A stretch of 64,000 nt of DNA from Minisyncoccia bacterium (GCA_041485695.1 JBGPJZ010000001.1:44697-108696); one strand, 5' to 3'. Positions 12,854 through 39,943 are shown, numbered from the stretch's first letter. Program-made: numbers and translations. Notes: a model not told the origin generated them from the letters alone.

Positions 12854-12856
12854 AAA

Positions 12857-12881
12857 GGCCCGGATTGCTCCGGGCCTTTTG
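12857..12881 (+). terminator. Rho-independent terminator of the rpoB-rpoC-dnaG-rpoD unit
   Basis: ggcccgg-attgct-ccgggcc hairpin followed by TTTTG. Confidence 0.7.
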
Positions 12882-12894
12882 CAAGGCACTGACG

Positions 12895-13203: not shown

Positions 13204-13257
13204 CCGGGCAGCCCCTCTCGTTGATCTGAAATCGATAGTACCATGTAGGTTCAGCCT

Positions 13258-14118
13258 ATGAAACGGAAAAGGAAGGGGAAAAAGCTGCCTATCAAGCACT
13301 GGAGCCACTCGAGCTTGATGGCATTCTTGCGGAACCCTCTTGCGTGGTACAAGCGCTATGTCGAGGAGGTCTACGACACGCCTTCGAGCCCTTCGTCTAT
13401 CGTTGGCCGGGCAGGGCACCTCGCGCTCCAGCATTTTTACCAGGGCGTCGATAAAGACGCCGCGATACTGCTTGGCCTTGAGTACGTGCGTAACGTGCAG
13501 GATTTTGAGATAAACTTCGGCAAGGCAAAGAGTCGCAAGGCCCGGCGCGCAAAGCGCGCCGGGATGGAGCACGAGTACCTCCAAGCCATCGGGTTCTACT
13601 TAGCGAAACCCCCACGCCACAAAGTACTCGGGGTGGAGGTGCGCGGCGTGGTCGGCGTCGAAGGGCTCCCGCTCCCTTTAAAGGCCATCTCGGATTTAGT
13701 CGTAGAGTCAAAGCTTGAGAAGGGCGCCGTCGATATTGTCGACCACAAGTTCGTCGATTCGTTCAGTAAGACAGGAGCGAGGAAGTCACTCTTTATCATG
13801 CAGGCTATTTTTAATTACTACACCGTGCGCGAGCTCTTTGGCCGCCCCGTGCGGCGCTTCATCGTCTATGAGTGCAAAAAGTCGAAGAACGCGAAGGGCG
13901 GTGCGCAATTAAAACGCCACGTCATCGACTACCGTGAGGCAAAAGAGGACTTTGCTGTCTTTCATCGTCTCATCAAAGAGGCTACCGAGGAGCTCTCGCG
14001 GCGTCGCCACTACCTCCCCAACCCCTCCGACATGTTCGAGGGCGACCACTCGTTCGATATCTATCGCCTCCGCCTTCTCGAGACAGAAGAGATTGACGAA
14101 ACCGAGGAGGAACTGTAA
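13258..14118 (+). CDS. PD-(D/E)XK nuclease superfamily protein (RecB/Cas4-like fold)
   Basis: N-terminal HWSHSSLMAFLRNPLAWYKRYV, ISD...VDIVDHK (D/ExK) and QAIFNYY (QxxxY) motifs. Confidence 0.7.
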   Translation: MKRKRKGKKLPIKHWSHSSLMAFLRNPLAWYKRYVEEVYDTPSSPSSIVGRAGHLALQHFYQGVDKDAAILLGLEYVRNVQDFEINFGKAKSRKARRAKRAGMEHEYLQAIGFYLAKPPRHKVLGVEVRGVVGVEGLPLPLKAISDLVVESKLEKGAVDIVDHKFVDSFSKTGARKSLFIMQAIFNYYTVRELFGRPVRRFIVYECKKSKNAKGGAQLKRHVIDYREAKEDFAVFHRLIKEATEELSRRRHYLPNPSDMFEGDHSFDIYRLRLLETEEIDETEEEL

Positions 14119-14150
14119 ACCTAGTGCAGAGGCTAAGAGTGGAGCAAGGA

Positions 14151-14333
14151 ATGAATCAGCAATTTCAGAAGAAGAAAGCGGAGAGAGCATCGCCGCTTCT
14201 CATGTTTGCCACGCTCTTTCTCCTTATCGCGGTACTCACCTTATATTTTGCCAGGGACCGCCCGCAACCTGTGCAGTCGCCCGACTTGCCGATTCGAGCT
14301 GTAGTAAGCGTGCCTGCGTCGCCCACTCGCTAG
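14151..14333 (+). CDS. Small membrane protein (61 aa, one TM helix)
   Basis: GGAG SD 6-8 nt upstream of the ATG. Hydrophobic core LLMFATLFLLIAVLTLYF. Followed by a terminator. Confidence 0.4.
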   Translation: MNQQFQKKKAERASPLLMFATLFLLIAVLTLYFARDRPQPVQSPDLPIRAVVSVPASPTR

Positions 14334-24384: not shown

Positions 24385-27204
24385 ATGCGGACGTATGACC
24401 ACCAAGAGATAGAGAAGCGCGCCCAAGAGAAATGGGCCTCGCTCGGCTTATATCAAGCAGACCTCGAAGACGATTCGAAAGACCCGTACTACCTCCTCAC
24501 CGAATTCCCCTACCCATCGGGCGACCTCCACATCGGGCACTGGTACGCGTTTGCGGTCACCGATATCTTCGCGCGAGTGAAGCGCATGAAGGGGGAGAAT
24601 GTCTTCTTTCCCATCGGGTTCGATGCGTTCGGCCTCCCGGCCGAGAACGCCGCCATCAAGAACAAGCTCGACCCTAAGGAGTGGACGTACAAGAACATGG
24701 AGCGGATGCGCGAACAGCTTCGCTCGATGGGCGCCTCGTTTGACTGGAGCAAAGAGGTCGTTACCTGCGAGCCTTCGTATTACAAATGGACGCAGTGGCT
24801 CTTCGTGAAGCTCATGGAGCACGGCCTCGCGTATCGCGCCGAGGCCTCAGTGAAGTGGTGCCCCAAAGACCAGACCGTGCTCGCGAACGAGCAGGTCGTC
24901 GACGGCTGCTGCGAACGCTGCGGCACGCCAGTCGAAGAGAAGTGGCTCACGCAATGGTTCCTCAAGATTACCGACTACGCCGAGCGCCTGCTTAAAGACC
25001 TCGAGCCTTTGCCGTGGCGCGAAGAGATCAAGGAGGCCCAGCGCGCGTGGGTAGGCAAGAGCGAGGGCGCGCACATCTCATTTACGATTTCTGGCCGAGA
25101 CGAGAAGGTCAAAGTCTTTACGACGCGGCCTGATACGCTTTTCGGCGCGACCTATTTGGTCCTTGCGCCCGAATACCCGCTCGTTTCACCACTCCTGACA
25201 AGCGTTTCGAATAAGAAAGAAGCCGAGAAGTATATCGATGCGACGAAAAAGAAGACGGAACGAGAGCGTTCCGAGAATAAGGAGAAGACCGGGGTGAAAC
25301 TCGAGGGTGTGAGAGCCATCAATCCGGCCAACCAAGAAGAAATCCCTGTGTACATCGCTGATTACGTCCTCGCCTCATATGGCACAGGCGCGGTGATGGC
25401 GGTGCCCGCTCACGACGAACGCGACTTCGCATTCGCGAAGAAATTTGATTTGCCCATTAGAACGGTCGTAGTCCCCAGACTTGTCGATGACCGGAACCCG
25501 CATATCGAAGGGAAAGAATTGGTGCACCGGAAGATAATCCTCGGCATCGTCAGGAATCCGAAGAACGGTAAATTCCTAGCACTTACATGGAAGAAACAGC
25601 CGTGGACGACGTTCGTCGTAGGGGGTATCGAAGAAGGCGAATCGCCTGAGCAAGCGGCTCGACGCGAAATCGAAGAAGAGACAGGGTATAAGAACCTGAG
25701 ATTCATAAAGGTGCTCGGTGACCCTATTCAGACAGAATTTTATGCGGCGCACAAGGACTTCAATCGTGTGGCGCTCGATTGGCCAGTGCTTTTCGAGCTC
25801 GAGGATGAAGAAAAGAGCGAAGTGAGCGACGAGGAGAAAGACAAGCACGAACCGACGTGGGTTAAGCGCAACGAGCTGACGCGCGAGCGTTTTGAGCATA
25901 TCGAACTCGATATCGTACTCGACCGCATGGACAATGGAGAGAGGGCATATACCGGAGCCGGCGTCCTTATCGCGTCAGGCGGATTCGATGGTAAAGAGAG
26001 CGAAGAGGCGAAATGGGAGATTGTGAAGGCAGTCGGGGGAGAGAGGACGACGAACTACCGCCTGCGCGATTGGCTCGTCTCACGCCAGCGATACTGGGGC
26101 TGCCCGATACCGGTCGTGTATGACCCGGAGGGGGCGCCGCACGCCGTGCCGCCCGAACACCTGCCGTGGCTCCTGCCGACCGATGTCGATTTCGCTCCGC
26201 ACGGGGAGGCGCCGCTCGCATCATCAAAGGAGCTCAAAAAGCGCGTCGAGAAGCTTTTCGGCAAAGGCTGGACGCCCGAATACGACACTCTCGATACGTT
26301 CGTCGACTCCTCATGGTATTTCTTGCGGTATCTCGACCCGAAAGATGAAAACGATTTCAGCGATAAGGGCCTCATGAAAAAGTGGCTCCCCGTCGACCGC
26401 TATTCGGGCGGGAGCGAGCACACGACCATGCACCTCCTCTACGCGCGTTTCTTTCATAAAGCGCTCTCTGACCTTGCACTCGTGCCTACGGCGGAACCGT
26501 TCAACGAACGCTTCAACCGCGGGCTCATCCTCGGGTCAGACGGGCAAAAGATGAGCAAGAGCAAAGGGAATGTCCTCAACCCCGACGAATTCGTGCAAAA
26601 GTACGGCGCCGACGCCGTGCGCCTCTACCTCGCCTTCATCGGGCCCTACAACGAGCCCGGTAGCTACCCCTGGAGTCTCGACGGGGTCGCGGCGATGCGC
26701 AAATTCATCGATCGCGTCGTACGCATGGTCGAGACTGCTACAGGAACTACCAACGTAGATTCAGAGTTCATAGCCGGGAAGGTGAAAATAGATACCGAGC
26801 GTTTTAAATTCAATACTGCAATTGCTGCACTCATGTCTCATCTTAATCTTTGCGAAAAATCTAAACCCGTATCAATAAAAACTGCAAGAGAATTTATTAT
26901 CTTGCTTGCGCCCTTCGCTCCGCATTTGGCTGAGCATCTTTGGGAGCAAATCAACGGGGAGGGGAGTGTTCACCAAGCTTCATGGCCTGTTGTGAACGAA
27001 GAGATACTCGGATTTTTCAACGGGGAAATTGCGGTGCAAGTCAACGGCAAAAAACGCGGCTCGATTACGCTCTCCGCTGATGCGACAGAAGCGGATGCAG
27101 TCGCTCTTGCGCGGAACATTGCTAGCGTACGCACCGCGCTCGGCGGAAAAGAGCCCCAACGAGTCGTCTATCGGCCCGGGAAGATTCTGAACCTCGTCAT
27201 TTGA
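24385..27204 (+). CDS. leuS: Leucine--tRNA ligase carrying a nested NUDIX hydrolase domain
   Basis: HIGH (LHIGHWYAF), CP1 editing motifs (TRPDTLFGATY, GTGAVMAVPAHDERDFAFA), NYRLRDWLVSRQRYWGCPIP and KMSKSKGN. Extra segment aa about 363-520 with Nudix box GGIEEGESPEQAARREIEEETGY. Confidence 0.95.
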   Translation: MRTYDHQEIEKRAQEKWASLGLYQADLEDDSKDPYYLLTEFPYPSGDLHIGHWYAFAVTDIFARVKRMKGENVFFPIGFDAFGLPAENAAIKNKLDPKEWTYKNMERMREQLRSMGASFDWSKEVVTCEPSYYKWTQWLFVKLMEHGLAYRAEASVKWCPKDQTVLANEQVVDGCCERCGTPVEEKWLTQWFLKITDYAERLLKDLEPLPWREEIKEAQRAWVGKSEGAHISFTISGRDEKVKVFTTRPDTLFGATYLVLAPEYPLVSPLLTSVSNKKEAEKYIDATKKKTERERSENKEKTGVKLEGVRAINPANQEEIPVYIADYVLASYGTGAVMAVPAHDERDFAFAKKFDLPIRTVVVPRLVDDRNPHIEGKELVHRKIILGIVRNPKNGKFLALTWKKQPWTTFVVGGIEEGESPEQAARREIEEETGYKNLRFIKVLGDPIQTEFYAAHKDFNRVALDWPVLFELEDEEKSEVSDEEKDKHEPTWVKRNELTRERFEHIELDIVLDRMDNGERAYTGAGVLIASGGFDGKESEEAKWEIVKAVGGERTTNYRLRDWLVSRQRYWGCPIPVVYDPEGAPHAVPPEHLPWLLPTDVDFAPHGEAPLASSKELKKRVEKLFGKGWTPEYDTLDTFVDSSWYFLRYLDPKDENDFSDKGLMKKWLPVDRYSGGSEHTTMHLLYARFFHKALSDLALVPTAEPFNERFNRGLILGSDGQKMSKSKGNVLNPDEFVQKYGADAVRLYLAFIGPYNEPGSYPWSLDGVAAMRKFIDRVVRMVETATGTTNVDSEFIAGKVKIDTERFKFNTAIAALMSHLNLCEKSKPVSIKTAREFIILLAPFAPHLAEHLWEQINGEGSVHQASWPVVNEEILGFFNGEIAVQVNGKKRGSITLSADATEADAVALARNIASVRTALGGKEPQRVVYRPGKILNLVI
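25471..25944 (+). other. Nested NUDIX hydrolase domain inside the LeuS CP1/editing region
   Basis: Perfect GX5EX7REUXEEXGU motif. About 135-aa Nudix-fold-sized insert between ...LPIRTVV and GAGVLIASGGFDG...NYRLRDW. Locally lower GC. Confidence 0.75.
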
Positions 27205-27243: not shown

Positions 27244-28308
27244 ATGGCAAAGAAAGCGAGCCCCCATAAGCACTCGGACGGAGCCGCGCTCTCTTTTGAC
27301 AGCGCGGTACTTGTCAAACGCCTCCTTGCCGAGGTGCCTGAGCGCGCACGCGACGTCCTCGTCCGCCGTTTCGGCCTCGGTGCAACGCCGCTCCGCGAGA
27401 CTTTGGAGGCTATCGGCGACCGCTCCTCGATTACCCGAGAGCGCGTCCGCCAGATCGAGGCGGCAGGCCTTGAGGCAGTGCAAGCGAGCAAAGCCTTCCG
27501 CGATGCCGAGCCCGCCTTCGAGGAGCTCCGCAAAGAGGTCGTCAGGCTCGGCAGTATCGTCCATGAAGACGAGCTCCTTTCGCATTTTGCAAAAGACGAG
27601 AAGAGCCGCAACCGCTTCCGCTTCCTTCTTGTCGTTGGGAGCGCCTTCTACCGCGAACGCGAGACGGATGATTTCTATGCACGCTGGCACGTTGACCACG
27701 AGACCGCGAAGGCGGTTCATGGGGCGCTCTCCCGGCTCTACTCCTCGCTTGATGACAACGACGTCCTCGCTGAAGACGCGCTGATGGACCGCTTCCTTGA
27801 CGAGCTCAAGGACATCAACGAGGCGTACAAGAACGAGGAAATCTTGAAGCGCTGGCTCACCCTCTCGAAGAATATCGGCAAAAATCCGCTTGCGGAGTGG
27901 GGCAGGGTGACTGCGCCCGCCATCCGCACTAAAGGTATCCGTGATTATGCGTATCTCGCCATCAAGCGTCACGGCAAGCCGATGCATTTCTCTGAAGTTG
28001 CTCGCGCCATCGGCACCCTCTTCTCGAAGAAGGCGCATGTTGCGACTACCCATAATGAGCTCATCAAGGATCCGCGCTTTGTCCTCGTTGGCCGCGGCCT
28101 CTACGCGCTCTCCGAATGGGGCTATACGCCGGGCGTCGTGCGCGACGTCATTCGCGAGGTCCTCTCGAAAGAGGGCCCTTTGAAGAAAGACGATGTCATC
28201 AAGCACGTGAAGAAGGCGCGCTTCGTCAAAGACAACACTATTTTGGTAAACTTAAACGACAGCCGCTACTTTAAGCGTCTCAAAGACGGCCGCTACGCAG
28301 CTGCATAA
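27244..28308 (+). CDS. Sigma-70 region-4 HTH + C-terminal HARE-HTH (RpoE delta-subunit-like winged helix) domain protein
   Basis: ERARDVLVRRFGLGATPLRETLEAIGDRSSITRERVRQIEAAGL (sigma region 4). C-terminal PMHFSEVARAI...THNELIKDPRFVLVGRGLYALSEWGY (HARE-HTH pattern). Confidence 0.65.
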   Translation: MAKKASPHKHSDGAALSFDSAVLVKRLLAEVPERARDVLVRRFGLGATPLRETLEAIGDRSSITRERVRQIEAAGLEAVQASKAFRDAEPAFEELRKEVVRLGSIVHEDELLSHFAKDEKSRNRFRFLLVVGSAFYRERETDDFYARWHVDHETAKAVHGALSRLYSSLDDNDVLAEDALMDRFLDELKDINEAYKNEEILKRWLTLSKNIGKNPLAEWGRVTAPAIRTKGIRDYAYLAIKRHGKPMHFSEVARAIGTLFSKKAHVATTHNELIKDPRFVLVGRGLYALSEWGYTPGVVRDVIREVLSKEGPLKKDDVIKHVKKARFVKDNTILVNLNDSRYFKRLKDGRYAAA

Positions 28309-28322
28309 GCGAGTCCAGGTAA

Positions 28323-28358
28323 GAAAAAACGCGCTCCCGCCTTAGGGGCGCGTTTTTT
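28323..28358 (+). terminator. Rho-independent terminator
   Basis: acgcgc(t)ccc...ggggcgcgt stem followed by TTTTTT. Confidence 0.65.
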
Positions 28359-28374
28359 CTGTTACAATTACCGC

Positions 28375-29739
28375 ATGAGCTTTTTGCCAGGCTTCCATGC
28401 TCTTGAGGAGTGGATGAAAGGTGCGCGCGATCGGAGCGGATTGCGGCCTCCCGGCTGGCCCATATTCCTTCTCGGAATCCTTATCTTCTTCAACGGGTAC
28501 CTTTTCTTCCAGTCGAACGTAGAGGCTGCGCTCTCGTACATGCTTTTTCTTTCGCCTTTGTGGCTTGCAGCCTTGATTGCAAGCGCGTCATGGGGGCTGT
28601 GGATGATTATGCGCCGCTCCTACTTCATCGCAGCACAAAGCTATATCCTGCTTGAAATAAAGCCGCCTCGCTCGCTTGTCAAGACGCCGCTCGCGATGGA
28701 GGCCGTGCTCGCCAGTTTCTGGCACTATCCGGGCGAAAGCGACTGGCATAGATTATATTGGTATGGCAGGGTCCGGCCATGGTGGTCCTTGGAGATAGTC
28801 TCTCTTGAAGGGCAGATACATTTCTATATCTGGACGCGCGCTAACTTTCGCAAGCTTGTCGAGGCAGCGGTGTATGCCCAGTACCCGGGCGCACAAGTGG
28901 TCGAAGCCGAGGACTACACTAAGACCATCTCGGCGATACCTGGCGCGGAGTGGGGCGTCTGGGGTTGTGATTACAAGCATACCAAGCGAGACCCGTACCC
29001 GATTAAAACCTATATAGAGTACGGGCTTGATAAGATCCAGGAAGAGCCCGAGCAGGTTGACCCCCTCTCAAACCTGGTTGAATTCGCGGCTGGGCTTGGT
29101 AAGGGCGAGTATCTGTGGATTCAATACATCTTTCGGGTACATCTGTGGGGAGAAAAGTATAAGAAAAGGAATAAAGAAGGTAAGCCTTGGACGTGGAAGG
29201 ACGAGGCGAAAGAGATCGTCCAAGAAATCAGGTCGCAAACGCGCGACCCGTATGTCGACCCTGCGACTGGTGAAGAGCGCCCTGGATTCCCCAACCCGAC
29301 CAAGCAGCAGACAGAGACTATGGCGGCAATCGAGCGCAACGTCGGGAAGCTCCCCTTCGATGTCGGCGCCCGCGCAATCTATCTTGCGAAGCCTGAGCGA
29401 TTCGACCCCATCGCTATCACCGGCCTCATCGGCCTCTTCAGGGCATTCTCGTCTGCCGGGTGGAATGAAATCAGGGCGACCCGGTGGCTTATGGAGTACG
29501 CCGACTACCCGTGGGAACTCGGCAATACCAGGCGTAAAGAGCGGCGTGCCGGGGAACTCGTCGACGCCTATCGCCGTCGGCAGTATTTTCACGAGCCGTG
29601 GTCGTTCCACGATTACATGGTGATGAGCACCGAAGAGCTTGCAACCCTTTTCCATATCCCATCGCGCGCCGTTACGTCGCCAGCGCTCGGACGCATCGAA
29701 TCAGCTACGGGCGAAGCGCCTGTCAATCTCCCGACCTAG
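28375..29739 (+). CDS. Hypothetical 454-aa membrane protein (2 N-terminal TM helices, large Trp/Tyr-rich soluble domain)
   Basis: Long ORF with consistent codon usage. No recognised motif. Immediately upstream of mltG. Confidence 0.6.
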   Translation: MSFLPGFHALEEWMKGARDRSGLRPPGWPIFLLGILIFFNGYLFFQSNVEAALSYMLFLSPLWLAALIASASWGLWMIMRRSYFIAAQSYILLEIKPPRSLVKTPLAMEAVLASFWHYPGESDWHRLYWYGRVRPWWSLEIVSLEGQIHFYIWTRANFRKLVEAAVYAQYPGAQVVEAEDYTKTISAIPGAEWGVWGCDYKHTKRDPYPIKTYIEYGLDKIQEEPEQVDPLSNLVEFAAGLGKGEYLWIQYIFRVHLWGEKYKKRNKEGKPWTWKDEAKEIVQEIRSQTRDPYVDPATGEERPGFPNPTKQQTETMAAIERNVGKLPFDVGARAIYLAKPERFDPIAITGLIGLFRAFSSAGWNEIRATRWLMEYADYPWELGNTRRKERRAGELVDAYRRRQYFHEPWSFHDYMVMSTEELATLFHIPSRAVTSPALGRIESATGEAPVNLPT

Positions 29740-30678: not shown

Positions 30679-30745
30679 GAAATGAAAAGCCGCGCGACGT
30701 GCACCATACTGGTGTCGTGTCGCGCGGCAAGCTTTCCAGCCCGCA

Positions 30746-31045
30746 TCATGTGAAGTGCTCCTCTCCGCTCCTATTGGTCGCCCTGACGGTTTTTGTGACC
30801 TTGGCCAATCGTCGGAGATTCTCATACTCGATTCCACGGCTATGATCCTCATGCAAGAGCGCGTATTCGATATCATCGCAGGGGACGATATCGAAGAGAT
30901 ACTTCTTGCCGGGATTAAGCCGGTGTTCGATTTGAGGATTATCGAGATTGTGAATCAGCAAGTGAGGATCGGGACTGTCCCGGTGGTCGACAACCTCAAC
31001 GTACACAGATCCTAAGTGAATGAACTGAGCGTTCACGGTACTCAC
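30746..31045 (-). CDS. Small hypothetical His-rich protein (99 aa) in a lower-GC patch
   Basis: GTG start preceded by aggaaaggaag. The overlapping plus-strand ORF 30755..31015 is an alternative. Low confidence. Confidence 0.3.
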   Translation of the reverse strand: MSTVNAQFIHLGSVYVEVVDHRDSPDPHLLIHNLDNPQIEHRLNPGKKYLFDIVPCDDIEYALLHEDHSRGIEYENLRRLAKVTKTVRATNRSGEEHFT

Positions 31046-31122
31046 CTTCCTTTCCTGACGCCCTCTAGCTTTAAGAGAATCGCATTTTGCGCCTGGTTGT
31101 CAAGCATGATTATATGAGGACA

Positions 31123-32058
31123 ATGGAGAACGTGAAGGGGAAGAAGGTGTTTATAGGCCTCTCGGGGGGAGTAGATTCGGCTGTCTCAGCTGCGCTCTTG
31201 AAGCGCGGTGGGGCAATCGTAACAGGTGTATTCATAAAAGGCTGGTACCCGCCAGGCATGCCCTGTACCTGGGCAGAAGATCGCCGCGACGCGATGCGCG
31301 TCGCGGCTCGTCTGCGTATCCCGTTCGTAACGCTCGATGCGAGCGCGGAGTACAAGAAGTGGGTCATCGATTATCTTTTGGCCGAATATCGGGCAGGCAG
31401 GACCCCGAATCCGGATGTCATGTGCAATCGTGAAATAAAATTTGGCGTTTTTTACCGCTATGCGAAAGCAGAAGGCGCCGATTATATCGCCACCGGTCAC
31501 TATCGGAGCGGAGAGAAGGACCAGAGCTACTTCTTATGGGCTGTCCCGCACGATGTTCTTGCTGAAACCATCTTTCCCATAGGGGACATGAATAAAAAAG
31601 AGGTTCGTGCGCTTGCAAAGCGACTTCGCTTGCCAGTCGCAGGGAAAAAAGATAGTCAGGGCATCTGCTTCTTGGGCGATGTATCAGTCGAAGATTTCTT
31701 GAAGAAAGAATTAGGGACTCACAATCCCGCGCTTCTCTATACGCTCGGGCAAAGAATCTCGCTCCCTGACGGCCCATGGTATGTCGTCGGGAAAGACGTG
31801 GGGAAGAAAGAAGTCGCTGTTTCAAGAGAGCGAGTACGACAAAGGAACGAGATACCCTTTCGTGATGCCAACTGGCTTGCTCTGCCCGCACGAGCCACCG
31901 AAGCGCAGTATCGGTATCGAGCGAGGCACGTCGCAGGCCGCATCAAGGGCTCTACCTTCATCCCTTCTGTCCCGATTCAAGAACCCATAGCGCCAGGGCA
32001 ATCCATCGTCTTTTATCGAGGACAGGAACTTATCGGCGGTGGTATCATTGGCTCATGA
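31123..32058 (+). CDS. mnmA: tRNA-specific 2-thiouridylase
   Basis: SGGVDSAV PP-loop, NPDVMCN, ATGHY. Start at the ATG with GAGGA SD, aligned to the MnmA N-terminus. Confidence 0.9.
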   Translation: MENVKGKKVFIGLSGGVDSAVSAALLKRGGAIVTGVFIKGWYPPGMPCTWAEDRRDAMRVAARLRIPFVTLDASAEYKKWVIDYLLAEYRAGRTPNPDVMCNREIKFGVFYRYAKAEGADYIATGHYRSGEKDQSYFLWAVPHDVLAETIFPIGDMNKKEVRALAKRLRLPVAGKKDSQGICFLGDVSVEDFLKKELGTHNPALLYTLGQRISLPDGPWYVVGKDVGKKEVAVSRERVRQRNEIPFRDANWLALPARATEAQYRYRARHVAGRIKGSTFIPSVPIQEPIAPGQSIVFYRGQELIGGGIIGS

Positions 32059-32468
32059 CGCTACGGATAGCCCTTGCAGTCTTTGTAGCCGTGGTCATCA
32101 TCATTGCGGCGTTCGCCTTCTTCACCCCTCACGCCAACAGGGGCGGAGAGCAGGCGCCGAGCGCGAGTATCGTCCAGAAACCAGTGCCAGATGTCTCCCT
32201 TTCCGACTCATATAAAAAAGGCATGCATACGATTTCTGGGTCAATCATGGCGCCCACGCCCTGCACGAGCGTCACTGCCGATGCGAGCGTCGCAAGCGGC
32301 ACGCCGGCGGTCATCTCGGTCACCATCTCGATGCCCTCTGATGCAGGTATTTGTTTGCAGCAAGCGACCGTAGTGCCGTTCAAAGTTTCTGCAGCGGCGG
32401 GAGCCGACGCGATCATCGCGGCGTATGTGAATGGGGCACCTGCCTCGACGACTGTAAAAACGTTATGA
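32055..32468 (+). CDS. Small membrane-anchored A/S/T-rich protein (137 aa)
   Basis: N-terminal TM helix. ATGA overlaps with mnmA and the next gene. Confidence 0.5.
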   Translation: MTLRIALAVFVAVVIIIAAFAFFTPHANRGGEQAPSASIVQKPVPDVSLSDSYKKGMHTISGSIMAPTPCTSVTADASVASGTPAVISVTISMPSDAGICLQQATVVPFKVSAAAGADAIIAAYVNGAPASTTVKTL

Positions 32469-33358
32469 CGCCGAATCTTGCACAGGCCGAGAATATCCGA
32501 AGCAGGCCCGCTGGCGTCCCGATAGTCAAAGCCGATGGCACCATTGAGACGTTCGATCCTGAACGCCTGCGCTCATCGCTTATGCGTGCAGGTGCGGGCT
32601 CCCACGCGGCCGAGCGCATCGCAGAGCAGATTACGGAGACAGTGGTACCCGGTGCGGCCTCTCGAGAGATCTATGCGCGGGCGTTCGCACTCCTGCGAAA
32701 AGAGGCGCGGCCAGTTGCAGCTCGGTACGCTCTGCGTCGTGCACTCCTTGAATTCGGCCCCACGGGCCATCCTTTTGAGGACTTCGTGTCGCACCTCTTT
32801 CGCGCGAGCGGATGGCAGGTGAAAACGCGCCAGATGATGCAGGGTAAGTGCGTTACTCACGAAGTTGATTTTTATGCAACGCGCGAGAGCGAGTACCTCG
32901 CCGCCGAGCTCAAATATCACAACGACCCGGCCTACAAGACCGACCTCAAGGTCGCGCTCTATGTAAAAGCGCGCTTCGAAGATATCTGGCAGTGCGACCC
33001 GGCTTTCCAGACGTGCCCCGTAAACCGCGGATTCCTCATTACGAATACCAAATTCACGAGCGAAGCTATCGCGTACGCTTCGTGTGCAGGCATCGAGCTC
33101 CTCGGGTGGAGCTATCCTGCGGGCGCCGGGCTCCTTGAGGAAATGTCTCGTACCCGGGTGTATCCTGTGACGACCCTGACCACGCTCGCGCGCGCGGAAA
33201 AGCGCCTCTTAATCGACCAGGGCGTGGTGGCGGTAGACGAACTCGTGAAGAAGCCGAAGGCTCTTGATGCGCTGCACCTTTCGCCATCGCGGGTAGGGGA
33301 GATACGCGCTGAAGCAGATGGGCTTTTACAACTTGCGCACCCTTTCGACCATGAATGA
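32465..33358 (+). CDS. ATP-cone domain fused to an Mrr-like (PD-(D/E)XK) restriction-endonuclease catalytic domain
   Basis: N-terminal IVKADGTIETFDPERLRSSLMRAG (NrdR-like ATP-cone). C-terminal FEDFVSHLFRASGWQV...CVTHEVDFYATRESEYLAAELKYH (Mrr_cat-like D...ExK). Confidence 0.65.
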   Translation: MTPNLAQAENIRSRPAGVPIVKADGTIETFDPERLRSSLMRAGAGSHAAERIAEQITETVVPGAASREIYARAFALLRKEARPVAARYALRRALLEFGPTGHPFEDFVSHLFRASGWQVKTRQMMQGKCVTHEVDFYATRESEYLAAELKYHNDPAYKTDLKVALYVKARFEDIWQCDPAFQTCPVNRGFLITNTKFTSEAIAYASCAGIELLGWSYPAGAGLLEEMSRTRVYPVTTLTTLARAEKRLLIDQGVVAVDELVKKPKALDALHLSPSRVGEIRAEADGLLQLAHPFDHE

Positions 33359-33833
33359 CGTTATACGACCAACCTTTATATTTATTGCTGGCGCTTTGAT
33401 TGGTGGCCTTGCCGCTACGGTATGGTTTTCAGCCTCTCAGCCGGTTCCCTGGCCGGGCGGCGGCGTAAGTACTTCGACCGGAAGCGCTGCGGCACTCCCG
33501 CCTGATACGAGCGGGAGAGTCTCGGTAATCGGTCAGAAAGCTGGCGACACCGTCGAGGTTGAGTCGGTAACCGTGCCCCCTCCTGGCGTGTGGGTTACCG
33601 TACGAGAAGTTTCCGGTACCGAACTCGGGAATGTGCTCGGGGCCGCGCGTGCCCGCGGCCCCGTTTCAACCCTCACCATTCCGCTCCTCCGAGCGACCGT
33701 ACCTGGCCACGCGTACGCGGTCGAGCTTTATCGCGATGACGGGAATGACGCGTTCGACATCACGCAAGATAGTGTATATGTCGATTTCGATACGGGAAAC
33801 CCTGTCATCGCTCCGTTTGCCACGACCAATTGA
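33351..33833 (+). CDS. Membrane-anchored hypothetical protein (161 aa)
   Basis: N-terminal TM. Translationally coupled to its neighbours. Confidence 0.5.
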   Translation: MNDVIRPTFIFIAGALIGGLAATVWFSASQPVPWPGGGVSTSTGSAAALPPDTSGRVSVIGQKAGDTVEVESVTVPPPGVWVTVREVSGTELGNVLGAARARGPVSTLTIPLLRATVPGHAYAVELYRDDGNDAFDITQDSVYVDFDTGNPVIAPFATTN

Positions 33834-33834
33834 T

Positions 33835-34626
33835 ATGGCGGGCGCTAAACGGTATGCGAAGACGTTCGAACCTCTTTCGTCAGAGCCTTTTACGTTGAGC
33901 CGATCCAAGATAGATACGTTTACCGAGTGTGCCCGCTGCTCGTATCTCGACCTGCGTCTTGGCGTCAAGCGTCCACAAGGCCCGAGTTTTACTTTAAACA
34001 ACGCTGTCGACGAGCTCTTGAAACGTGAATTCGACGGGTACCGCGCAAACGGGACGGTCCATCCCCTCGCAAAGTCGTACGGCCTCGACCTCACCCCCCT
34101 CAAAGATGAACGGCTTGAAGAGTGGCGTGATGCCCTGCGACGGGGGATTAGAGCGCATCACAAAGAGACAAATCTTATCGTGCGCGGCGGCATCGATGAC
34201 GTGTGGCAAGACAAGCGAGGCCAGCTCTACGTGGTCGACTACAAGGCCACCGCGAAGAAGGAGGGGCCGAAGACCGCCGACGACCTCTACCCTTCATACA
34301 AGAAGCAGGTCGAGGTATACCAGTGGCTCTTTCGTAAAAACGGCTTTGTCGTCTCGCCGACCGCATATTTCGTATACGTGAATGGGAAATCCGATGCGAA
34401 GGCGTTCGACGGCAAGCTTGAGTTCGATATCGAGCTCATCCCGTATGAAGGCGATGATTCGTGGGTCGACCCTATGCTCGGCGACCTCAAGGCCATGCTC
34501 ATGAGCGATGAGATTCCACCCGTAGGGACCGCATTTGGAGGGGGCCCGTGCGACTACTGCACGTACCGCGAGAACGCTGGCAAAACGCTGCAAGAAGCGC
34601 AGAAGCATGCAAAAAGCAAGAAATAA
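33835..34626 (+). CDS. Cas4/RecB-like PD-(D/E)XK nuclease with 4-Cys (Fe-S) signature
   Basis: N-terminal ECARC and C-terminal CDYC cysteines. VVDYK (D/ExK) and EVYQWLF (QxxxY). Confidence 0.65.
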   Translation: MAGAKRYAKTFEPLSSEPFTLSRSKIDTFTECARCSYLDLRLGVKRPQGPSFTLNNAVDELLKREFDGYRANGTVHPLAKSYGLDLTPLKDERLEEWRDALRRGIRAHHKETNLIVRGGIDDVWQDKRGQLYVVDYKATAKKEGPKTADDLYPSYKKQVEVYQWLFRKNGFVVSPTAYFVYVNGKSDAKAFDGKLEFDIELIPYEGDDSWVDPMLGDLKAMLMSDEIPPVGTAFGGGPCDYCTYRENAGKTLQEAQKHAKSKK

Positions 34627-34873
34627 TTTCCGCGAACGCGTCTTTGCGGTCGTGAGAAAGATTCCAAAAGGGAAGACACTCGCGTATGGCGAAGTCGCGC
34701 GCCGCGCAGGGAAGCCGAGCGCGGCGCGCGCCGTGGGCGCCATTTTGCATACGAACTTTGACCCTGCAATCCCATGCCATCGCGTCATCCGCGCAGACGG
34801 CACCTTGGGTGGCTATAATCGCGGTGCGCGTAAAAAGAAGTTGATATTATCAGTAGAGAGGGCTGTGTGGTGA
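34607..34873 (+). CDS. Minimal methylated-DNA--protein-cysteine methyltransferase (MGMT/Ogt C-terminal DNA-binding domain only, 88 aa)
   Basis: PCHRV active-site motif (IPCHRVIRADGTLGGY) and HTH AYGEVARRAG. Confidence 0.75.
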   Translation: MQKARNNFRERVFAVVRKIPKGKTLAYGEVARRAGKPSAARAVGAILHTNFDPAIPCHRVIRADGTLGGYNRGARKKKLILSVERAVW

Positions 34874-34927
34874 TACGCTAGAGTGCAGGTTCGCAATCAG
34901 GCGATTTCCGTAGGGAGGGTTCACGTC

Positions 34928-35338
34928 ATGAAACGGATACGCGCGAGTATCGCCTTGTTCTTTGTCTCGTGGCTTGCAGTAGCTCCTGTGTATGGCGCTG
35001 ATCCTGCAACCAAGAGCGAGGTGCTGCGGGCAATCGTGTGTCGTACCGCCCCATGTCAATATTCCATCTTATGTCCCGTGGTGCGTCGGCTGAACGGGAG
35101 AGAGATGTCGTTCATGCTTGGTGTCAAGGTGAGCGGAGATGTGGTCATCCTCCACGATTCTCTTTTCGGCGTCACTCTCGTCTCTGCACATGGGGAGGAT
35201 ACTCTCGCCGACATCGTCCCTGAACGACCAGAGGAGGCCATGGGGTTTGATAAGCCTACGATGCGGATTGTCTTCGCCAAGGAGCTCGTTGTGGCTGTGC
35301 AGTGTGCGCTAGACAGTTCTCGGAATCCTCCAATCTGA
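34928..35338 (+). CDS. Secreted hypothetical protein (signal peptide)
   Basis: MKRIRASIALFFVSWLAVAPVYGA signal-peptide-like N-terminus. Confidence 0.45.
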   Translation: MKRIRASIALFFVSWLAVAPVYGADPATKSEVLRAIVCRTAPCQYSILCPVVRRLNGREMSFMLGVKVSGDVVILHDSLFGVTLVSAHGEDTLADIVPERPEEAMGFDKPTMRIVFAKELVVAVQCALDSSRNPPI

Positions 35339-35409
35339 CCGGTGCCTCGTTCCTTTCCTGAAAACCTGCACGCCTCGCGCGTACAGGTTTTCTCTCATAT
35401 ACTCCCCCC

Positions 35410-36102
35410 ATGGAGGTCAAGATTGACGCATCGTGGAAGAAGCATTTAAACACAGAATTTAAGGCGCCGTATTTCAAAGAGCTTACAGAGTTTGTTAAGA
35501 AAGAATATGTGAGCGAGATGGTGTATCCGCCGCCCAAATATATTTTTCATGCCTTTGATCTCTGCCCGTTCGACAAGGTCAAGGTGGTGATTCTAGGGCA
35601 GGATCCGTATCACGGCAAAGGCCAAGCCAACGGCTTGTGTTTTGCTGTGAACGATGACATCGTACTCCCGCCCTCGCTCCAGAATATCTTTAAAGAAATC
35701 GAAAGCGATCTCGGCGACCGAGCGAAGAGCGAGGAAGTCCCGAGGCTAGCAAGCCGAGGGGGCAATCTTTCGCGATGGGCAGAGCAGGGTGTCCTCTTGC
35801 TGAACGCGACACTCACCGTCCGTGCAAATCTCGCTGGCTCGCATCAGGGGCGTGGCTGGGAACAGTTTACCGACGCGGCTATCAAGGCGCTTTCAAGCGA
35901 GCGCGAGCACCTCGTCTTCATCCTCTGGGGAAATTATGCGAAGCAAAAAGGCGCGCATATCGACCGCAGTAAACACTTGGTCATCGAGTCCGCCCACCCC
36001 TCACCCTTCTCCGCTGCAAGCGGTTTCTTCGGCTCTAAACCTTTCAGCAAAGCGAACACCTACCTCGCCGAACACGGCGAAACGCCTGTCGATTGGCTAT
36101 AA
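35410..36102 (+). CDS. ung: Uracil-DNA glycosylase (family 1)
   Basis: GQDPYH and HPSPFS motifs. Confidence 0.95.
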
Positions 36103-36192: not shown

Positions 36193-38157
36193 CTACCAAA
36201 TCTTGGCGCGGGCTTTGGGGGCGCGATAGAGCTTGTCTCCTTTTTTCACCCCAAACGCTTCGTAGAACTCGGTCAGATTAGAAAGCGGGCCGTTAACACG
36301 AAAAATGTCAGGCGAATGCGGGTCGGTAAGAATCGAGGTTTTTAAATGTTCAGGCCGTGCAATCTCACGCCAATCCTGTGCCTTAGCAAGGAAGAAGCGT
36401 TGTTCGGGAGCAAAGCCGTCAATTATTTTGCGCCCTGTCTTTTTAAGATGCCGCTCATATGCAGCGAAGGCAATCGCGTCCCCGCCAAGATCCGCAATAT
36501 TTTCGCCAAGCGTGAGTTTACCGTTGACCTTCACTCCATGCAGCTCGTACTGATTGAACTGTCGTTCAACCACGCGAGCCTTTTTCTCAAATCGGGCGCG
36601 GTCAAGCGATGTCCACCAGCTTTTTAAGTTGCCTTTTTCATCGAACTTCGAGCCCTGGTCGTCGAAGCCGTGCGTAATCTCGTGGCCGATTACAGCGCCG
36701 ATGGCACCATAGTTCACTGCGTCGTCGGCGCTTGCGTCGAAAAAAGGATGCTGGAGAATCGCAGCAGGAAAGACTATCTCGTTCGTACCCTGGTTATAGT
36801 ACGCATTGACCGTTTGCGGCGTCATAAACCACTCCTCGCGGTCAACTGGCTTACCGAGCTTGTGCATCTGGCGCGCGTGCTCATGGAGCGAGGCGCGCAT
36901 CACATTCCCGAAATAATCGGCGGGGTCGATGACGAGTCTTCGGTAACTCTTCCAGCGTTTTGGGTACCCGATCTTGCGGACCATGGTCTTTAGTTTCTTC
37001 TGCGCGCGTTTTTTCGTTGCCGGGCTCATCCAGTCAAGGACCTTGATGCGTTCGGCATACACGGCAAACAAGTCGCTGATGAGAGCGTCCATTTTTCGCT
37101 TTGCTTCGTGGGTGAAATATTTTTCTACATAAATCTGCCCGAGCGATTCACCAACCGTGCCGTTAACTGTCGAGAGTGCTCGGCGCCATAAAGGGCGCAT
37201 CTTTTTAGCTCCCGAAAGTACCTTGCCGTAAAAATCGAAATTAGCTTGCACAAATCGTTGCGAAAGCAGGCCCGCCGTCCCTATGAAAAGATGCCATTCA
37301 AGATACACTCGCCAGTCTTCCATCGAGGTTTGCTTAAGGAGAGAGCTCACCGCTTTCAAAAAGCCGGGCTGCATAACCAATATCTTGGTCGGCGTGCGCG
37401 CCCCGATAGCTTTCAAATATGAACGCCAGTTGACGACCGGCGACAACTTCTGAAGAGCCTTTACCGAGAGTTTATGGTAGGTCTTGTGCGGGTCACGCGT
37501 GTCCTCTTTGCGCATTGAGGCCGTTGCCAGCGTTTTTTCAATCGCGAAAATAATCGCTGCATTCCGCCTCGCATCTTGCGGTGCCCAGCCGAAGAGCTTC
37601 AGCATCCTTTCAATATGTGCGAGATACGCAGTACGAACTCTAACCTGTTCGGGGTTATTGAGAAGATAATAGTCGCGCTCGGGCACGCCGAGACCGTCTT
37701 GGTAGAGATGCAAGAGATATGTCTCGCTGTTTTTTGCATCTTGATCAATTGCTGCACCCCACAAAACACCGATACCAAGCTTGTGAAATTTAGCGACGAG
37801 GCGAAGCACATCCTCTTTTGTTTTAAGCTTCTTAATCTTTGTGCGGAAGCGTTCAAGCGGCTTCGCGCCGAGTGCATTACGCGCCTTCATATCCATGCCC
37901 GAGCGATACAAGTCACCAACAAGTTGCGGGGCAGTGCCTTTCATAAGGTGCTTGGCCTTGAGCAAGCCGTTGACGATTTCTCTCAGCTTCTTTTGCGTTT
38001 CAGTTTGGAGGATTTGGAAACTGCCCCAGCGTGACTCATGAGGAGGGATTTTCTCTCTTTTAATCCACCCCCCGTTCGCGTAATGAAAAAAGTCGTCCTG
38101 CGGGCGGACGCGCTTATCTATGTCTCGCGTATCAAATCCCCACCCTTTTTTCTTCAT
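36193..38157 (-). CDS. M13-family zinc metalloendopeptidase (PepO/neprilysin-like)
   Basis: HEITHGFDDQG (HExxH) and ENIADLGG motifs. Confidence 0.9.
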   Translation of the reverse strand: MKKKGWGFDTRDIDKRVRPQDDFFHYANGGWIKREKIPPHESRWGSFQILQTETQKKLREIVNGLLKAKHLMKGTAPQLVGDLYRSGMDMKARNALGAKPLERFRTKIKKLKTKEDVLRLVAKFHKLGIGVLWGAAIDQDAKNSETYLLHLYQDGLGVPERDYYLLNNPEQVRVRTAYLAHIERMLKLFGWAPQDARRNAAIIFAIEKTLATASMRKEDTRDPHKTYHKLSVKALQKLSPVVNWRSYLKAIGARTPTKILVMQPGFLKAVSSLLKQTSMEDWRVYLEWHLFIGTAGLLSQRFVQANFDFYGKVLSGAKKMRPLWRRALSTVNGTVGESLGQIYVEKYFTHEAKRKMDALISDLFAVYAERIKVLDWMSPATKKRAQKKLKTMVRKIGYPKRWKSYRRLVIDPADYFGNVMRASLHEHARQMHKLGKPVDREEWFMTPQTVNAYYNQGTNEIVFPAAILQHPFFDASADDAVNYGAIGAVIGHEITHGFDDQGSKFDEKGNLKSWWTSLDRARFEKKARVVERQFNQYELHGVKVNGKLTLGENIADLGGDAIAFAAYERHLKKTGRKIIDGFAPEQRFFLAKAQDWREIARPEHLKTSILTDPHSPDIFRVNGPLSNLTEFYEAFGVKKGDKLYRAPKARAKIW

Positions 38158-38203
38158 GCCGCCATACTACACGACCTTCTATTCGCGTGCTATCGTCTCA
38201 TGC

Positions 38204-39943
38204 ATGACGGTGAATGAAGTACGGAAGCGATACTTAGACTTTTTTGAGAAAAGAGGGCACAAGGTAATACCCTCGGCGCCCATCGTGCCCGAGAATGACC
38301 CGACGACGCTTTTCACGTCGTCGGGGATGCAGCCTTTGGTGCCGTATTTGCTCGGGAAGGATCACCCGGAAGGGAAGCGGTTGGTAAACTCGCAACTTTC
38401 ATTTCGCGCGGGCGATATTGAAGAGGTGGGCGATAATCGCCACACCACTTTTTTCGAAATGCTCGGCAACTGGTCGTTGGGTGATTACTTTAAAAAAGAG
38501 CAATTGCCGTGGGTCTATGAATTTTTAACTACCGAACTAAAACTACCGAAAGAGCGGATATGGGTAACGTGCTTTGCAGGTGATGAAAATCTAGGTCTAC
38601 CAAAAGATACGGAGTCGGCAGAGATTTGGAAATCGCTCGGCGTGCCCGAAGACCGCATCCTTTTTTATGACGCCAAGAAGAATTGGTGGAGCCGCTCCGG
38701 CACGCCAGAGAAGATGCCGGCAGGGGAGCCAGGCGGCCCCGATTCTGAAATCTTTTATGACTTCGGCACGCCGCACGACTTTGCGTTTGGCGACGAGTGC
38801 CACCCTAACTGTGATTGCGGGCGTTTTATGGAGATTGGAAACTCGGTGTTTATGGAGTACATCAAAACTGCCGATGGTTTCGATAAGCTTCCGAAACGCA
38901 ATGTCGACTTCGGCGGTGGGCTCGAGCGCCTCACGGCCGCAACCCTCGGTAATCCGGATGTCTTCCTCATTGACGTGTTTGATGCGGCGCGTGAAGAGTT
39001 GGGGCGCCTCTCGGGTAAGCGGTATGAAGAATCCCTTGAAGTTACACGCGTATTCCGAATCATTTTAGATCACACACGTGCGGCTTCGGTGATGTTCGAT
39101 TTCGGCCTTCGACCCTCGAATACAGAACAAGGATACATACTCCGGCGATTAATTCGCCGCGCTATTCGTGAGGCCGACCGGCTCGGTATTACCGAAAATA
39201 TCTTAGCGGAAGTCGCTGGTGCGCACAGGGAAGAATTCCAGCAAGAAGAGGAACGATTCCGTAAAACTCTTACCCAAGGCATGCGGGAGCTCGAGAAGAT
39301 GGATCCGATTGACGCCTTTACTCTTTTTACGACCTACGGATTTCCGGTTGAACTCACGGCTGAAATAGCGGCAGAACGGGGGAAGCCGATCAATTTTGAA
39401 GAGGTAAAGACGCAAATGGAGGAGCATCAAGCGAAAAGCCGTGCAGGGGCGGCGCAAAAGTTCGCGGGGGGATTAGCGGATCATGCAGAGCAGACCATCC
39501 GCTACCACACGGCGCACCATATTTTACTCAAAGCGCTCCAGATGGTGCTCGGACCCGACGTCCACCAGCGGGGGAGCAATATCACAAGCGAACGGCTTCG
39601 CATCGATTTTTCGCATGGGCAAAAAATGACACCCGAACAGATTGCTCAAGTAGAAAGAATCGTGAATGAAAAGATAGCTGAAGCAATTCCCGTCATCCGC
39701 ACTGATATGAAGAAAGAAGAAGCAGAGAAGCTCGGGGCCGAGCACGAGTTCGGTGTTAAGTACCCCGATACTGTTTCAATCTACTCGGTGGGCCCGCTTG
39801 ATAGTGCATTTTCAATAGAATTCTGCGGCGGCCCGCATGTAGAGAATACAAAAGAGTTAGGTGCCGGCGGGAAGAAATTCGAAATCCTGAAAGAAGAGGC
39901 GTCTTCAGCCGGTGTGCGTCGCATCAAAGCGGTGCTCCAATAG
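38204..39943 (+). CDS. alaS: Alanine--tRNA ligase, short form lacking the C-terminal C-Ala domain
   Basis: Class II catalytic core FTSSGMQP. Editing-domain HTAHHIL...CGGPHV. 579 aa vs about 870 canonical. TATCGT 7 nt before the ATG. Confidence 0.85.
   Translation: MTVNEVRKRYLDFFEKRGHKVIPSAPIVPENDPTTLFTSSGMQPLVPYLLGKDHPEGKRLVNSQLSFRAGDIEEVGDNRHTTFFEMLGNWSLGDYFKKEQLPWVYEFLTTELKLPKERIWVTCFAGDENLGLPKDTESAEIWKSLGVPEDRILFYDAKKNWWSRSGTPEKMPAGEPGGPDSEIFYDFGTPHDFAFGDECHPNCDCGRFMEIGNSVFMEYIKTADGFDKLPKRNVDFGGGLERLTAATLGNPDVFLIDVFDAAREELGRLSGKRYEESLEVTRVFRIILDHTRAASVMFDFGLRPSNTEQGYILRRLIRRAIREADRLGITENILAEVAGAHREEFQQEEERFRKTLTQGMRELEKMDPIDAFTLFTTYGFPVELTAEIAAERGKPINFEEVKTQMEEHQAKSRAGAAQKFAGGLADHAEQTIRYHTAHHILLKALQMVLGPDVHQRGSNITSERLRIDFSHGQKMTPEQIAQVERIVNEKIAEAIPVIRTDMKKEEAEKLGAEHEFGVKYPDTVSIYSVGPLDSAFSIEFCGGPHVENTKELGAGGKKFEILKEEASSAGVRRIKAVLQ

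Follow-up and report, generated by a model that had tools for sequence, protein, structure and literature searches.

In the synthesis of DNA precursors, the ATP-cone is the classic switch that responds to dATP and ATP, and it has been studied mainly in ribonucleotide reductases (RNRs) and in NrdR. Nucleotide binding by S. coelicolor NrdR depends on residues V48, K50, E56, and K62 (PMC9110341). On the nuclease side, AF1548 of Archaeoglobus fulgidus has been predicted from its sequence to be a restriction-type nuclease with catalytic residues D38, E51, and K53 (PMC1821046). Here, we describe a gene, ACMrr, that joins an ATP-cone to an Mrr-type nuclease domain, together with the gene cluster in which it lies. 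The cluster is part of a 64,000-nucleotide stretch of a Minisyncoccia bacterium genome (GCA_041485695.1 JBGPJZ010000001.1:44697-108696; hereafter, the window), where seven plus-strand genes fill positions 32055 to 36102 directly 3′ of mnmA, in the order sp1, ACMrr, sp2, PDDEXK, MGMT, sp3, UNG. Three of them (sp1, sp2, and sp3) encode small proteins with an N-terminal hydrophobic segment; the others encode, besides ACMrr, a nuclease of the RecB/Cas4 family (PDDEXK), a minimal O6-alkylguanine-DNA alkyltransferase (MGMT), and a family-1 uracil-DNA glycosylase (UNG). The reading that we prefer, at a probability of about 0.45, is that the cluster is a vertically inherited DNA-damage-processing housekeeping operon of Paceibacteria-type Patescibacteria and that its ACMrr nuclease is nucleotide gated.

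Domain calls were judged against the curated cut-offs of Pfam and NCBIfam. By this measure, ACMrr contains an ATP-cone (PF03477; 27.7 bits against a cut-off of 25.8, residues 20 to 78) and an Mrr_cat domain (PF04471; 25.1 bits against 21), and its homologues additionally carry the AF1548-like_C domain (PF22357). The AlphaFold2 model of ACMrr is confident, with a mean predicted local distance difference test score (pLDDT) of 92.8, and has five helices in the C-terminal domain, which is putatively DNA binding. A search of the PDB aligned entry 1Y88, the structure of AF1548, to residues 107 to 285 (E = 3.8e-25, 33% identity), and the same entry matches the fold of the model with a target-normalised template modelling (TM) score of 0.78. 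Further fold matches are the catalytic domains of MspJI, AspBHI, Can2, and Cdn1, as well as the ATP-cones of NrdR and RNRs. Six residues (E105, H132, E133, D135, E148, and K150) are invariant in sets of 33 and 62 diverse homologues that are 31 to 83% identical overall and 34 to 83% in the set of 62, and three of these, D135, E148, and K150, are the counterparts of the predicted catalytic D38, E51, and K53 of AF1548. ACMrr is predicted to be an endonuclease, one that is probably gated by ATP or dATP.

The N-terminal domain of the model superimposes on the ATP-cone of E. coli NrdR with a root-mean-square deviation of 1.9 to 2.8 Å over 82 to 85 residues (22 to 25% identity); ATP-cones of several RNRs are also among its fold matches, and, as judged from the model, the closest ATP-cone is that of NrdR. 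Residues I20, K22, E28, and R34 of ACMrr are spaced as V48, K50, E56, and K62 of NrdR, and across the ACMrr family K22 is kept in 97 to 98% of members, K or R at position 34 in 100%, and I or V at position 20 in about 100%. When the ATP-cone segment was searched by itself against PDB sequences, there was no match, and a profile of the same region returned designed helical-repeat proteins (artefacts) as its top matches, with NrdR and RNRs appearing only at E of about 0.08 to 0.4; the ATP-cone assignment therefore rests on the Pfam call together with the fold match. A zinc ribbon is absent from ACMrr, whose residues 1 to 19 contain no cysteine, and the domain scan found the ATP-cone and Mrr_cat only, with no Mrr_N, SRA, or other recognition domain. 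ACMrr therefore cannot be classed as an NrdR or as a classical Mrr. The similarity of its ATP-cone to that of NrdR, in which nucleotide-driven oligomerisation controls DNA binding (PMC9110341), might be taken to mean that ACMrr is itself a regulator, with nuclease and helical domains that only bind DNA and a repression of genes that responds to dATP/ATP. We consider this extremely improbable: the invariance of E105, D135, E148, K150, H132, and E133 would be unexpected after a loss of catalysis, and the zinc ribbon of NrdR is missing.

The fusion of an ATP-cone to an Mrr-like PD-(D/E)XK domain, first pointed out in a preliminary description of this DNA, is a real and widespread architecture. 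A HMMER scan of 1.84 billion representative sequences recovered 411 clusters (at 50% identity) with E < 1e-30, nearly all of them of about 280 amino acids (aa). Members that combine PF03477, PF04471, and PF22357 are named “ATP cone domain-containing protein” or “restriction endonuclease” by NCBI, and named members derive from Patescibacteria, Bacteroidota (Saprospiraceae, Balneolales, and Cytophagales), Planctomycetota, and Chlamydiota. A search of the literature for the ATP-cone in combination with Mrr, nuclease, or endonuclease found only the sequence-based prediction for AF1548 in the 2007 GOS paper (PMC1821046). The architecture is thus catalogued in domain databases, and the operon and the ATP-cone nuclease are undescribed in the literature searched.

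The genes that the preliminary description had grouped into one cluster are linked across many genomes. The proteins of the window were compared by tblastn with 77 species-level genome loci and 80 metagenome loci; results are given for a close clade (ACMrr at least 58% identical) and for distant loci, among them those of the Patescibacteria type in which ACMrr is 40 to 48% identical. Upstream of ACMrr, the close clade has mnmA in 73/73 loci and mltG in 59/62; downstream, it has PDDEXK in 65/66, MGMT in 25 or, by a second count, 26 of 53, UNG in 51/53, and alaS in 46/51. Among the distant loci, mnmA lies 5′ of the ACMrr homologue in 29 of 41 (in L160 and L166 the two genes are immediate neighbours and overlap by 4 nt). 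In the 22 loci of the Patescibacteria type, PDDEXK is found in 19, MGMT in 16, and a uracil glycosylase in 15. All matches are on the same strand as ACMrr. The order mltG–mnmA–nuclease–PDDEXK–(MGMT)–uracil-DNA glycosylase (UDG)–alaS holds to about 40% identity in Patescibacteria. In the window, the block is part of a long array of core genes, with ychF, leuS, a Sigma70_r4/HARE-HTH protein gene, mltG, and mnmA upstream and alaS downstream.

The glycosylase slot is occupied by more than one family. In the 22 distant loci whose downstream sequence extends for 4 kb or more, it holds a family-1 enzyme in 8 and a family-4 enzyme in 7, the latter scoring 192 bits on TIGR00758 (cut-off 125). There are 11 family-4 matches overall (L094, L098, L118, L124, L132, L133, L147, L152, L155, L156, and L160), each on the same strand as the ACMrr homologue and 0.8 to 3.6 kb downstream of it. 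This exchange is a non-orthologous displacement in a single slot and argues that selection maintains uracil-glycosylase function at this position, beyond the mere inheritance of a gene order. Selection thus appears to act on the linkage of ACMrr to the 5′-3′-exonuclease-like enzyme and to a uracil glycosylase, as well as to the alkyltransferase that is often present.

ACMrr itself evolves like the core genes around it. It is 64 to 83% identical across about 75 species-level genomes, where it keeps a fixed housekeeping position, and its mean identity over the loci (about 60%) is close to the means of mnmA (57%), alaS (64%), and PDDEXK (61%). Identities of ACMrr correlate with those of mnmA (Spearman coefficient, 0.73), alaS (0.74), and PDDEXK (0.60), as expected under vertical co-inheritance.

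The enzymes of the cluster are, individually, ordinary. The PDDEXK protein matches PF12705 (PDDEXK_1) with 43.9 bits (cut-off 22) and has invariant D121/D122, D135-Y-K137 (DxK), and Q158xxxY162 motifs as well as four invariant cysteines, C32-x2-C35 and C239-x2-C242. A sequence search of the PDB with this protein gave no match. Its structural model (pLDDT 87) matches RecE, the AdnA nuclease domain, MGME1, EXO5, lambda exonuclease, and the Cas4 protein SSO0001; by fold, it resembles 5′-3′ DNA exonucleases (RecE, EXO5, MGME1, and lambda exonuclease). We also considered true membership in Cas4 and rejected it: the protein reaches 22.6 bits on the Cas4 model TIGR00372, whose cut-off is 65, Pfam assigns PDDEXK_1 and not Cas_Cas4 (PF01930), the cysteine pattern is the wrong one, and there is no CRISPR context. 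The MGMT protein scores 98.5 bits on PF01035 (DNA_binding_1; cut-off 27), over residues 7 to 85, and 83.8 bits on TIGR00589 (cut-off 46.4), and it contains the acceptor-cysteine motif PCHRV (as IPCHRVI). It consists of the C-terminal domain only, with full-length equivalog models scoring far below their cut-offs. UNG reaches 266.3 bits on TIGR00628 (cut-off 185.75) and 313 on NF003592 (cut-off 162), and both the GQDPYH and the HPSPFS motifs are present in its translation. The domain identities given in the preliminary description therefore stand for the ATP-cone, Mrr_cat, and DNA_binding_1 domains, all above their cut-offs, for an 88-aa alkyltransferase domain with PCHRV, and for a family-1 UNG; its Cas4/RecB-like nuclease with four cysteines is right as to the RecB-type PDDEXK_1 domain and the cysteines but not as to Cas4, whose cysteine pattern and cut-off it misses.

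In the preferred reading, the operon would be transcribed together with mnmA, and its core genes would be those of the ACMrr endonuclease, a RecB/Cas4-family exonuclease with a four-cysteine metal site, and a uracil-DNA glycosylase, to which the minimal O6-alkylguanine transferase and the small membrane proteins would be optional additions. The ATP-cone of ACMrr would bind ATP and/or dATP, and binding would alter the oligomeric state of the protein and thereby switch the nuclease on or off, by analogy to NrdR and to RNRs. Incision and resection, by ACMrr and then by the exonuclease, would in this way be tied to the adenine-nucleotide and deoxynucleoside triphosphate (dNTP) status of the cell. 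Such an arrangement could be useful where the cell probably cannot synthesise nucleotides, a trait reported for the Candidate Phyla Radiation (CPR) group, and where repair synthesis would depend on salvage.

Several observations weigh against this reading. E28 of ACMrr, which corresponds to E56 of NrdR, is conserved in no more than 44 to 70% of the family, and the literature search found no functional study or biochemistry of any ATP-cone/Mrr family member. The loci were sampled by way of peptide patterns, and their taxonomic spread does not amount to a census. In this window, a terminator-like hairpin sets UNG apart from the other genes. In loci outside Patescibacteria, none of the neighbours seen in the window accompany ACMrr; it is paired there with a beta-CASP nuclease, so the substrate of ACMrr could be RNA. 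DNA is nonetheless the favoured substrate, given the DNA enzymes encoded next to it and its kinship with Mrr and MspJI. Finally, mltG, mnmA, and alaS are linked to ACMrr as strongly as the repair genes are, and one locus (L166, ACMrr about 42% identical) keeps only the upstream array plus a DUF7282 protein, so part of the linkage may be plain synteny.

These last points are what would be expected if the genes were packed, co-transcribed housekeeping genes and nothing else, with ACMrr playing a role (for example, in RNA/DNA turnover under energy stress) that has no bearing on its neighbours. The conserved block from leuS to alaS includes mltG and mnmA, homologues from other phyla do without these neighbours, and close spacing of genes is frequent in the window: among about 40 pairs of neighbours on the same strand, a 4-bp overlap is possible at 7, so overlaps are by themselves ordinary here, and gaps are no longer than 20 nt at 12. 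We nevertheless find it doubtful that the neighbourhood is without functional meaning, because gene order survives to about 40% identity, where an unselected order has usually decayed, because the downstream genes all act on DNA, and because family-1 and family-4 UDGs alternate at one position.

A second context, outside Patescibacteria, bears on a different role. A homologue of ACMrr (35 to 41% identical) adjoins the gene of a beta-CASP metallo-beta-lactamase nuclease of 450 to 470 aa in nine loci (L110, L114, L141, L154, L159, L161, L162, L163, and L164), often with overlapping stop and start codons; the best NCBIfam matches of this enzyme, both below threshold, are the aCPSF1 and Cas14 models. 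ACMrr is thus paired with a second nuclease in two settings: in Patescibacteria the partner is of the RecB family, and in the other phyla it is of the beta-CASP type, with genes of nucleotide catabolism or salvage close by as well. Natronogracilivirga saccharolytica is, like Pontibacter actiniarum, a cultured carrier of the ACMrr–beta-CASP pair. Two of the nine loci lie on plasmids of isolates, Pontibacter actiniarum (L161; NZ_CP021236, 1972-6597) and Criblamydia sequanensis (L162; NZ_LK031773, 6001-10608), and contain an operon for the ATP-cone nuclease, the beta-CASP enzyme, an enzyme of the thymidine/AMP-phosphorylase family, and a ribose-phosphate diphosphokinase. The phosphorylase scores 589 to 602 bits on TIGR02645 (cut-off 434.6) and 480 to 506 bits on AMP_phos (cut-off 535), and the Criblamydia operon is flanked by phosphoketolase, glgP, and acetate kinase genes. 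The same phosphorylase family or DeoC is encoded about 7 kb downstream in L110, L164, and L163, and Usp genes occur near the ACMrr–beta-CASP loci.

These neighbours would fit a switch for nucleotide recycling, in which ACMrr and an exonuclease degrade nucleic acid to mononucleotides for salvage or energy when the ATP-cone senses a low or unbalanced adenine-nucleotide pool, with UNG and MGMT as mere co-transcribed passengers. Such a switch would agree with reports that nucleosides enter the central metabolism of CPR bacteria (PMC5113843, PMC6389311). For the locus described here, we think this unlikely: the catabolic partners are found neither in the Patescibacteria loci nor in the 64-kb window, where the partners are classical repair enzymes; a UDG slot that is kept through a change of enzyme family is hard to explain for a passenger; and a free-running cytoplasmic DNase would endanger the genome of the cell itself.

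Two of the beta-CASP loci have further features of their own. In L114 (metagenome contig Ga0208793_1000001, approximately 8000-14200), two ACMrr paralogues flank the beta-CASP gene and are followed by three genes for tandem-Usp proteins of about 283 aa, and in L159, Usp, BON, DoxX, and PAS-kinase genes surround the ACMrr–beta-CASP pair.

The preliminary description had offered the cluster as a nucleotide-regulated defence or DNA-surveillance module, and these two halves fared differently. As a defence module, ACMrr would be a restriction-like nuclease under nucleotide control that acts on phage or other foreign DNA with the help of a Cas4-like nuclease. The Mrr_cat fold is indeed common to type IV restriction enzymes and to the CARF nucleases Can2 and Cdn1, and a PADLOC scan gave matches of the PDDEXK protein to Cas4 models, if only weak and below threshold. 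In the same scan of the seven proteins (PADLOC-DB 2.0), ACMrr had no significant match (the best, ZorD, at E = 0.05), and it is without any domain of the Mrr_N or SRA kind for the recognition of targets. The 64-kb window contains no CRISPR repeat array, and there are no cas genes among the neighbours. A scan of 2.9 million viral contigs with a family profile found no relatives of ACMrr, and tblastn against 50,697 phage records found none for either ACMrr or PDDEXK. Among 72,556 plasmids, ACMrr has two matches (those that led to the beta-CASP and phosphorylase genes), and PDDEXK has one, in an uninformative region of hypothetical proteins. The high identity of ACMrr at a fixed position over about 75 genomes and a divergence that tracks mnmA and alaS are likewise at odds with a defence gene, and the GC content of the cluster is the same as that of its flanks. 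Given this core-like conservation and co-divergence, the position in a core array, the flat GC content, and the lack of significant PADLOC matches or phage and viral relatives for ACMrr, the cluster is a housekeeping one; defence is not supported, and we regard it as very unlikely. DNA surveillance, by comparison, survives in the sense of a repair operon, which is the better reading. A horizontally acquired island was considered as well and rejected, on the grounds of the even GC content, the absence of mobile-element genes, and a divergence correlated with that of core genes.

The layout of the cluster is given in Table 1. The seven genes of the preliminary description are real, and all lie on the plus strand; independent JGI calls on identical contigs give the same proteins, save that sp2 is read from an earlier start (171 aa). 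The spacings of the junctions from mnmA to UNG are −4 (ATGA), −4 (ATGA), −8, +1, −20, +54, and +71 nt, the first being the overlap of the mnmA stop with the sp1 start and the −20 that of PDDEXK with MGMT. Judging from these spacings, tight coupling is confined to mnmA through MGMT, and the ATGA-type 4-bp overlaps that had been ascribed to the whole run are found at two junctions only, the last two being spaced at 54 and 71 nt. The five consecutive junctions of at most 1 nt, from mnmA to MGMT, form the longest such run in the window.

Table 1. Coordinates of mnmA and of the features of the adjoining cluster, counted from the first letter of the window
Feature	Positions	Strand	Description
mnmA (tRNA 2-thiouridylase)	31087-32058	+	Pfam tRNA_Me_trans, 205.6 bits
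sp1	32055-32468	+	137 aa; N-terminal membrane anchor; without known family
ACMrr (ATP-cone/Mrr nuclease fusion)	32465-33358	+	297 aa
ATP-cone domain of ACMrr	32522-32755	+	Residues 20-97; PF03477
Mrr_cat / PD-(D/E)XK core of ACMrr	32765-33103	+	Residues 101-213; PF04471
AF1548-like C-terminal helical domain of ACMrr	33104-33334	+	Residues 214-290; aligned to C-terminal part of 1Y88
sp2	33351-33833	+	160 aa; membrane-anchored DUF7282 protein; alternative start 33318
PDDEXK nuclease (RecB/Cas4 family)	33835-34626	+	263 aa
MGMT (minimal O6-alkylguanine-DNA alkyltransferase)	34607-34873	+	88 aa
sp3	34928-35338	+	136 aa; signal peptide; orphan
Terminator-like hairpin	35360-35392	+	Between sp3 and UNG; folding energy compared with shuffles
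UNG (family-1 uracil-DNA glycosylase)	35410-36102	+	230 aa

The hairpin upstream of UNG has a predicted folding energy of −19.3 kcal/mol (z = −3.86), with 0/200 shuffles folding equally well, and is followed by the U-rich tract UUUUCUCUC; it may act as a terminator between sp3 and UNG. The UNG start is preceded, at a distance of about 6 nt, by a TATACT hexamer and by no visible Shine-Dalgarno sequence. A search for a hairpin 3′ of UNG gave no significant result (z = −1.7). A scan for sigma-70 promoters was near the shuffle expectation and was not used, and Rfam, tRNA, and tandem-repeat scans had no match within the cluster. Upstream, mltG and mnmA are separated in the window by a spacer of about 400 nt (30679-31086) with an antisense open reading frame of 99 aa (30746-31045); in most relatives, the offsets of the tblastn matches suggest that mltG ends close to mnmA.

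The small proteins are lineage-specific or variable accessory inserts and not part of the core: sp1 is confined to the close clade, sp2 is frequently missing, and sp3 is found on contigs of this organism only. This runs counter to the preliminary description, which had stressed a tight coupling with exported proteins and had placed two of them after the nuclease; there are three, interleaved with the other genes, and sp1 precedes ACMrr. In sp1, the peak 19-residue Kyte-Doolittle hydropathy is 3.19 (residues 5 to 23); the gene occurs in 69/73 close but only 3/41 distant loci. The sp2 protein matches PF23951 (DUF7282) with 33.3 bits (cut-off 27) and has its hydrophobic segment at residues 8 to 26; a counterpart is found 3′ of ACMrr in 48/66 close loci and is also present in L166. 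Profile scans (Pfam, NCBIfam, and PADLOC) found no family for sp3, whose only tblastn match among 169 loci is an identical contig; its gene has a good Shine-Dalgarno sequence (GGGAGGG). The gap between MGMT and UNG, which sp3 fills, is a variable slot of 0, about 270, or 600 to 800 nt in relatives, in most of which UNG begins within 100 nt of MGMT or PDDEXK. Homology among sp1, sp2, and sp3 was considered and rejected, as comparison shows them to be unrelated.

Other genes of the conserved array have unusual features. The leucyl-tRNA synthetase of the window (24385-27204, plus strand, 939 aa) has a NUDIX domain (PF00293, 55 bits) at residues 384 to 504, just after the editing domain; the orthologous leuS of L166 is listed without it. 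The alanyl-tRNA synthetase (38120-39943, plus strand) is short (607 aa), with the catalytic and SAD domains and no C-terminal domain detected, and that of L160 is likewise short (536 aa). Positions 27244 to 29739 (plus strand) encode the Sigma70_r4 and HARE-HTH protein and then a 454-aa protein of unknown function, both conserved 5′ of mltG–mnmA; the counterpart of the latter in L166 is labelled DUF8128.

Taken over both contexts, a broader reading can be put forward only tentatively, as one that we think less likely to be right than wrong. ACMrr would be the first ATP-cone-controlled nuclease; in Patescibacteria, as nucleotide auxotrophs, it would permit the incision and resection steps of uracil repair and alkylation repair only while there is enough ATP/dATP for resynthesis, and in Bacteroidota, Chlamydiota, and other phyla, it would have been re-used, with beta-CASP and AMP-phosphorylase-like enzymes, as a nucleotide-gated switch of nucleic-acid catabolism. 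An ATP-cone fused to an intact nuclease in a large, multi-phylum family (at least 411 clusters) would extend the logic of this switch to the cutting of DNA, and, in organisms reported to live on scavenged nucleotides, the operon may show how a minimal cell ties the maintenance of its genome to a supply of nucleotides that is outside its control. The family also offers a clue to what the protein of the orphan structure 1Y88 may do.

Among known systems, AF1548 (1Y88) is like ACMrr in its Mrr_cat and AF1548-like_C domains and in the same predicted D/E/K triad; it differs in lacking an ATP-cone, and, as a product of structural genomics, it has a function predicted from sequence only (PMC1821046). 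NrdR offers the best structural match of the N-terminal domain, with equivalents of K50 and K62 at the same spacing, but it has a zinc ribbon, and its ATP-cone is C-terminal to this DNA-binding ribbon, whereas that of ACMrr is N-terminal to the nuclease; the output, repression in NrdR, would in ACMrr be cleavage. With Mrr and the type IV enzymes MspJI and AspBHI, ACMrr shares the PF04471 catalytic-domain family and the fold; unlike them, it has no recognition domain, lies outside mobile or variable regions, and is conserved like a core gene.

The partner enzymes can be placed in the same manner. The PDDEXK protein has the fold, the D...DxK and QxxxY motifs, and the four cysteines bridging the N and C termini of the Cas4/RecB family (the AddB and AdnA nuclease domains, EXO5, MGME1, and lambda exonuclease), but its cysteines are arranged as CxxC...CxxC, where those of Cas4 follow C...CxxCx5C, and it lies outside any CRISPR context. 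The MGMT protein shares the DNA_binding_1 domain and PCHRV motif with Ogt and MGMT and lacks the N-terminal domain of Ogt and Ada. Alkyltransferase-like (ATL) proteins likewise consist of a DNA_binding_1 domain alone; unlike ATL, the 88-aa protein keeps the acceptor cysteine and should therefore be a true suicide transferase. The ACMrr–beta-CASP operons of Bacteroidota, Chlamydiota, and other groups, themselves undescribed, have an orthologous ATP-cone nuclease directly before a second nuclease; they differ in that this partner is an aCPSF1/Cas14-like beta-CASP enzyme and that the genes around the pair encode a phosphorylase, a phosphoribosyl pyrophosphate (PRPP) synthase, and Usp proteins, in place of a UDG and MGMT.

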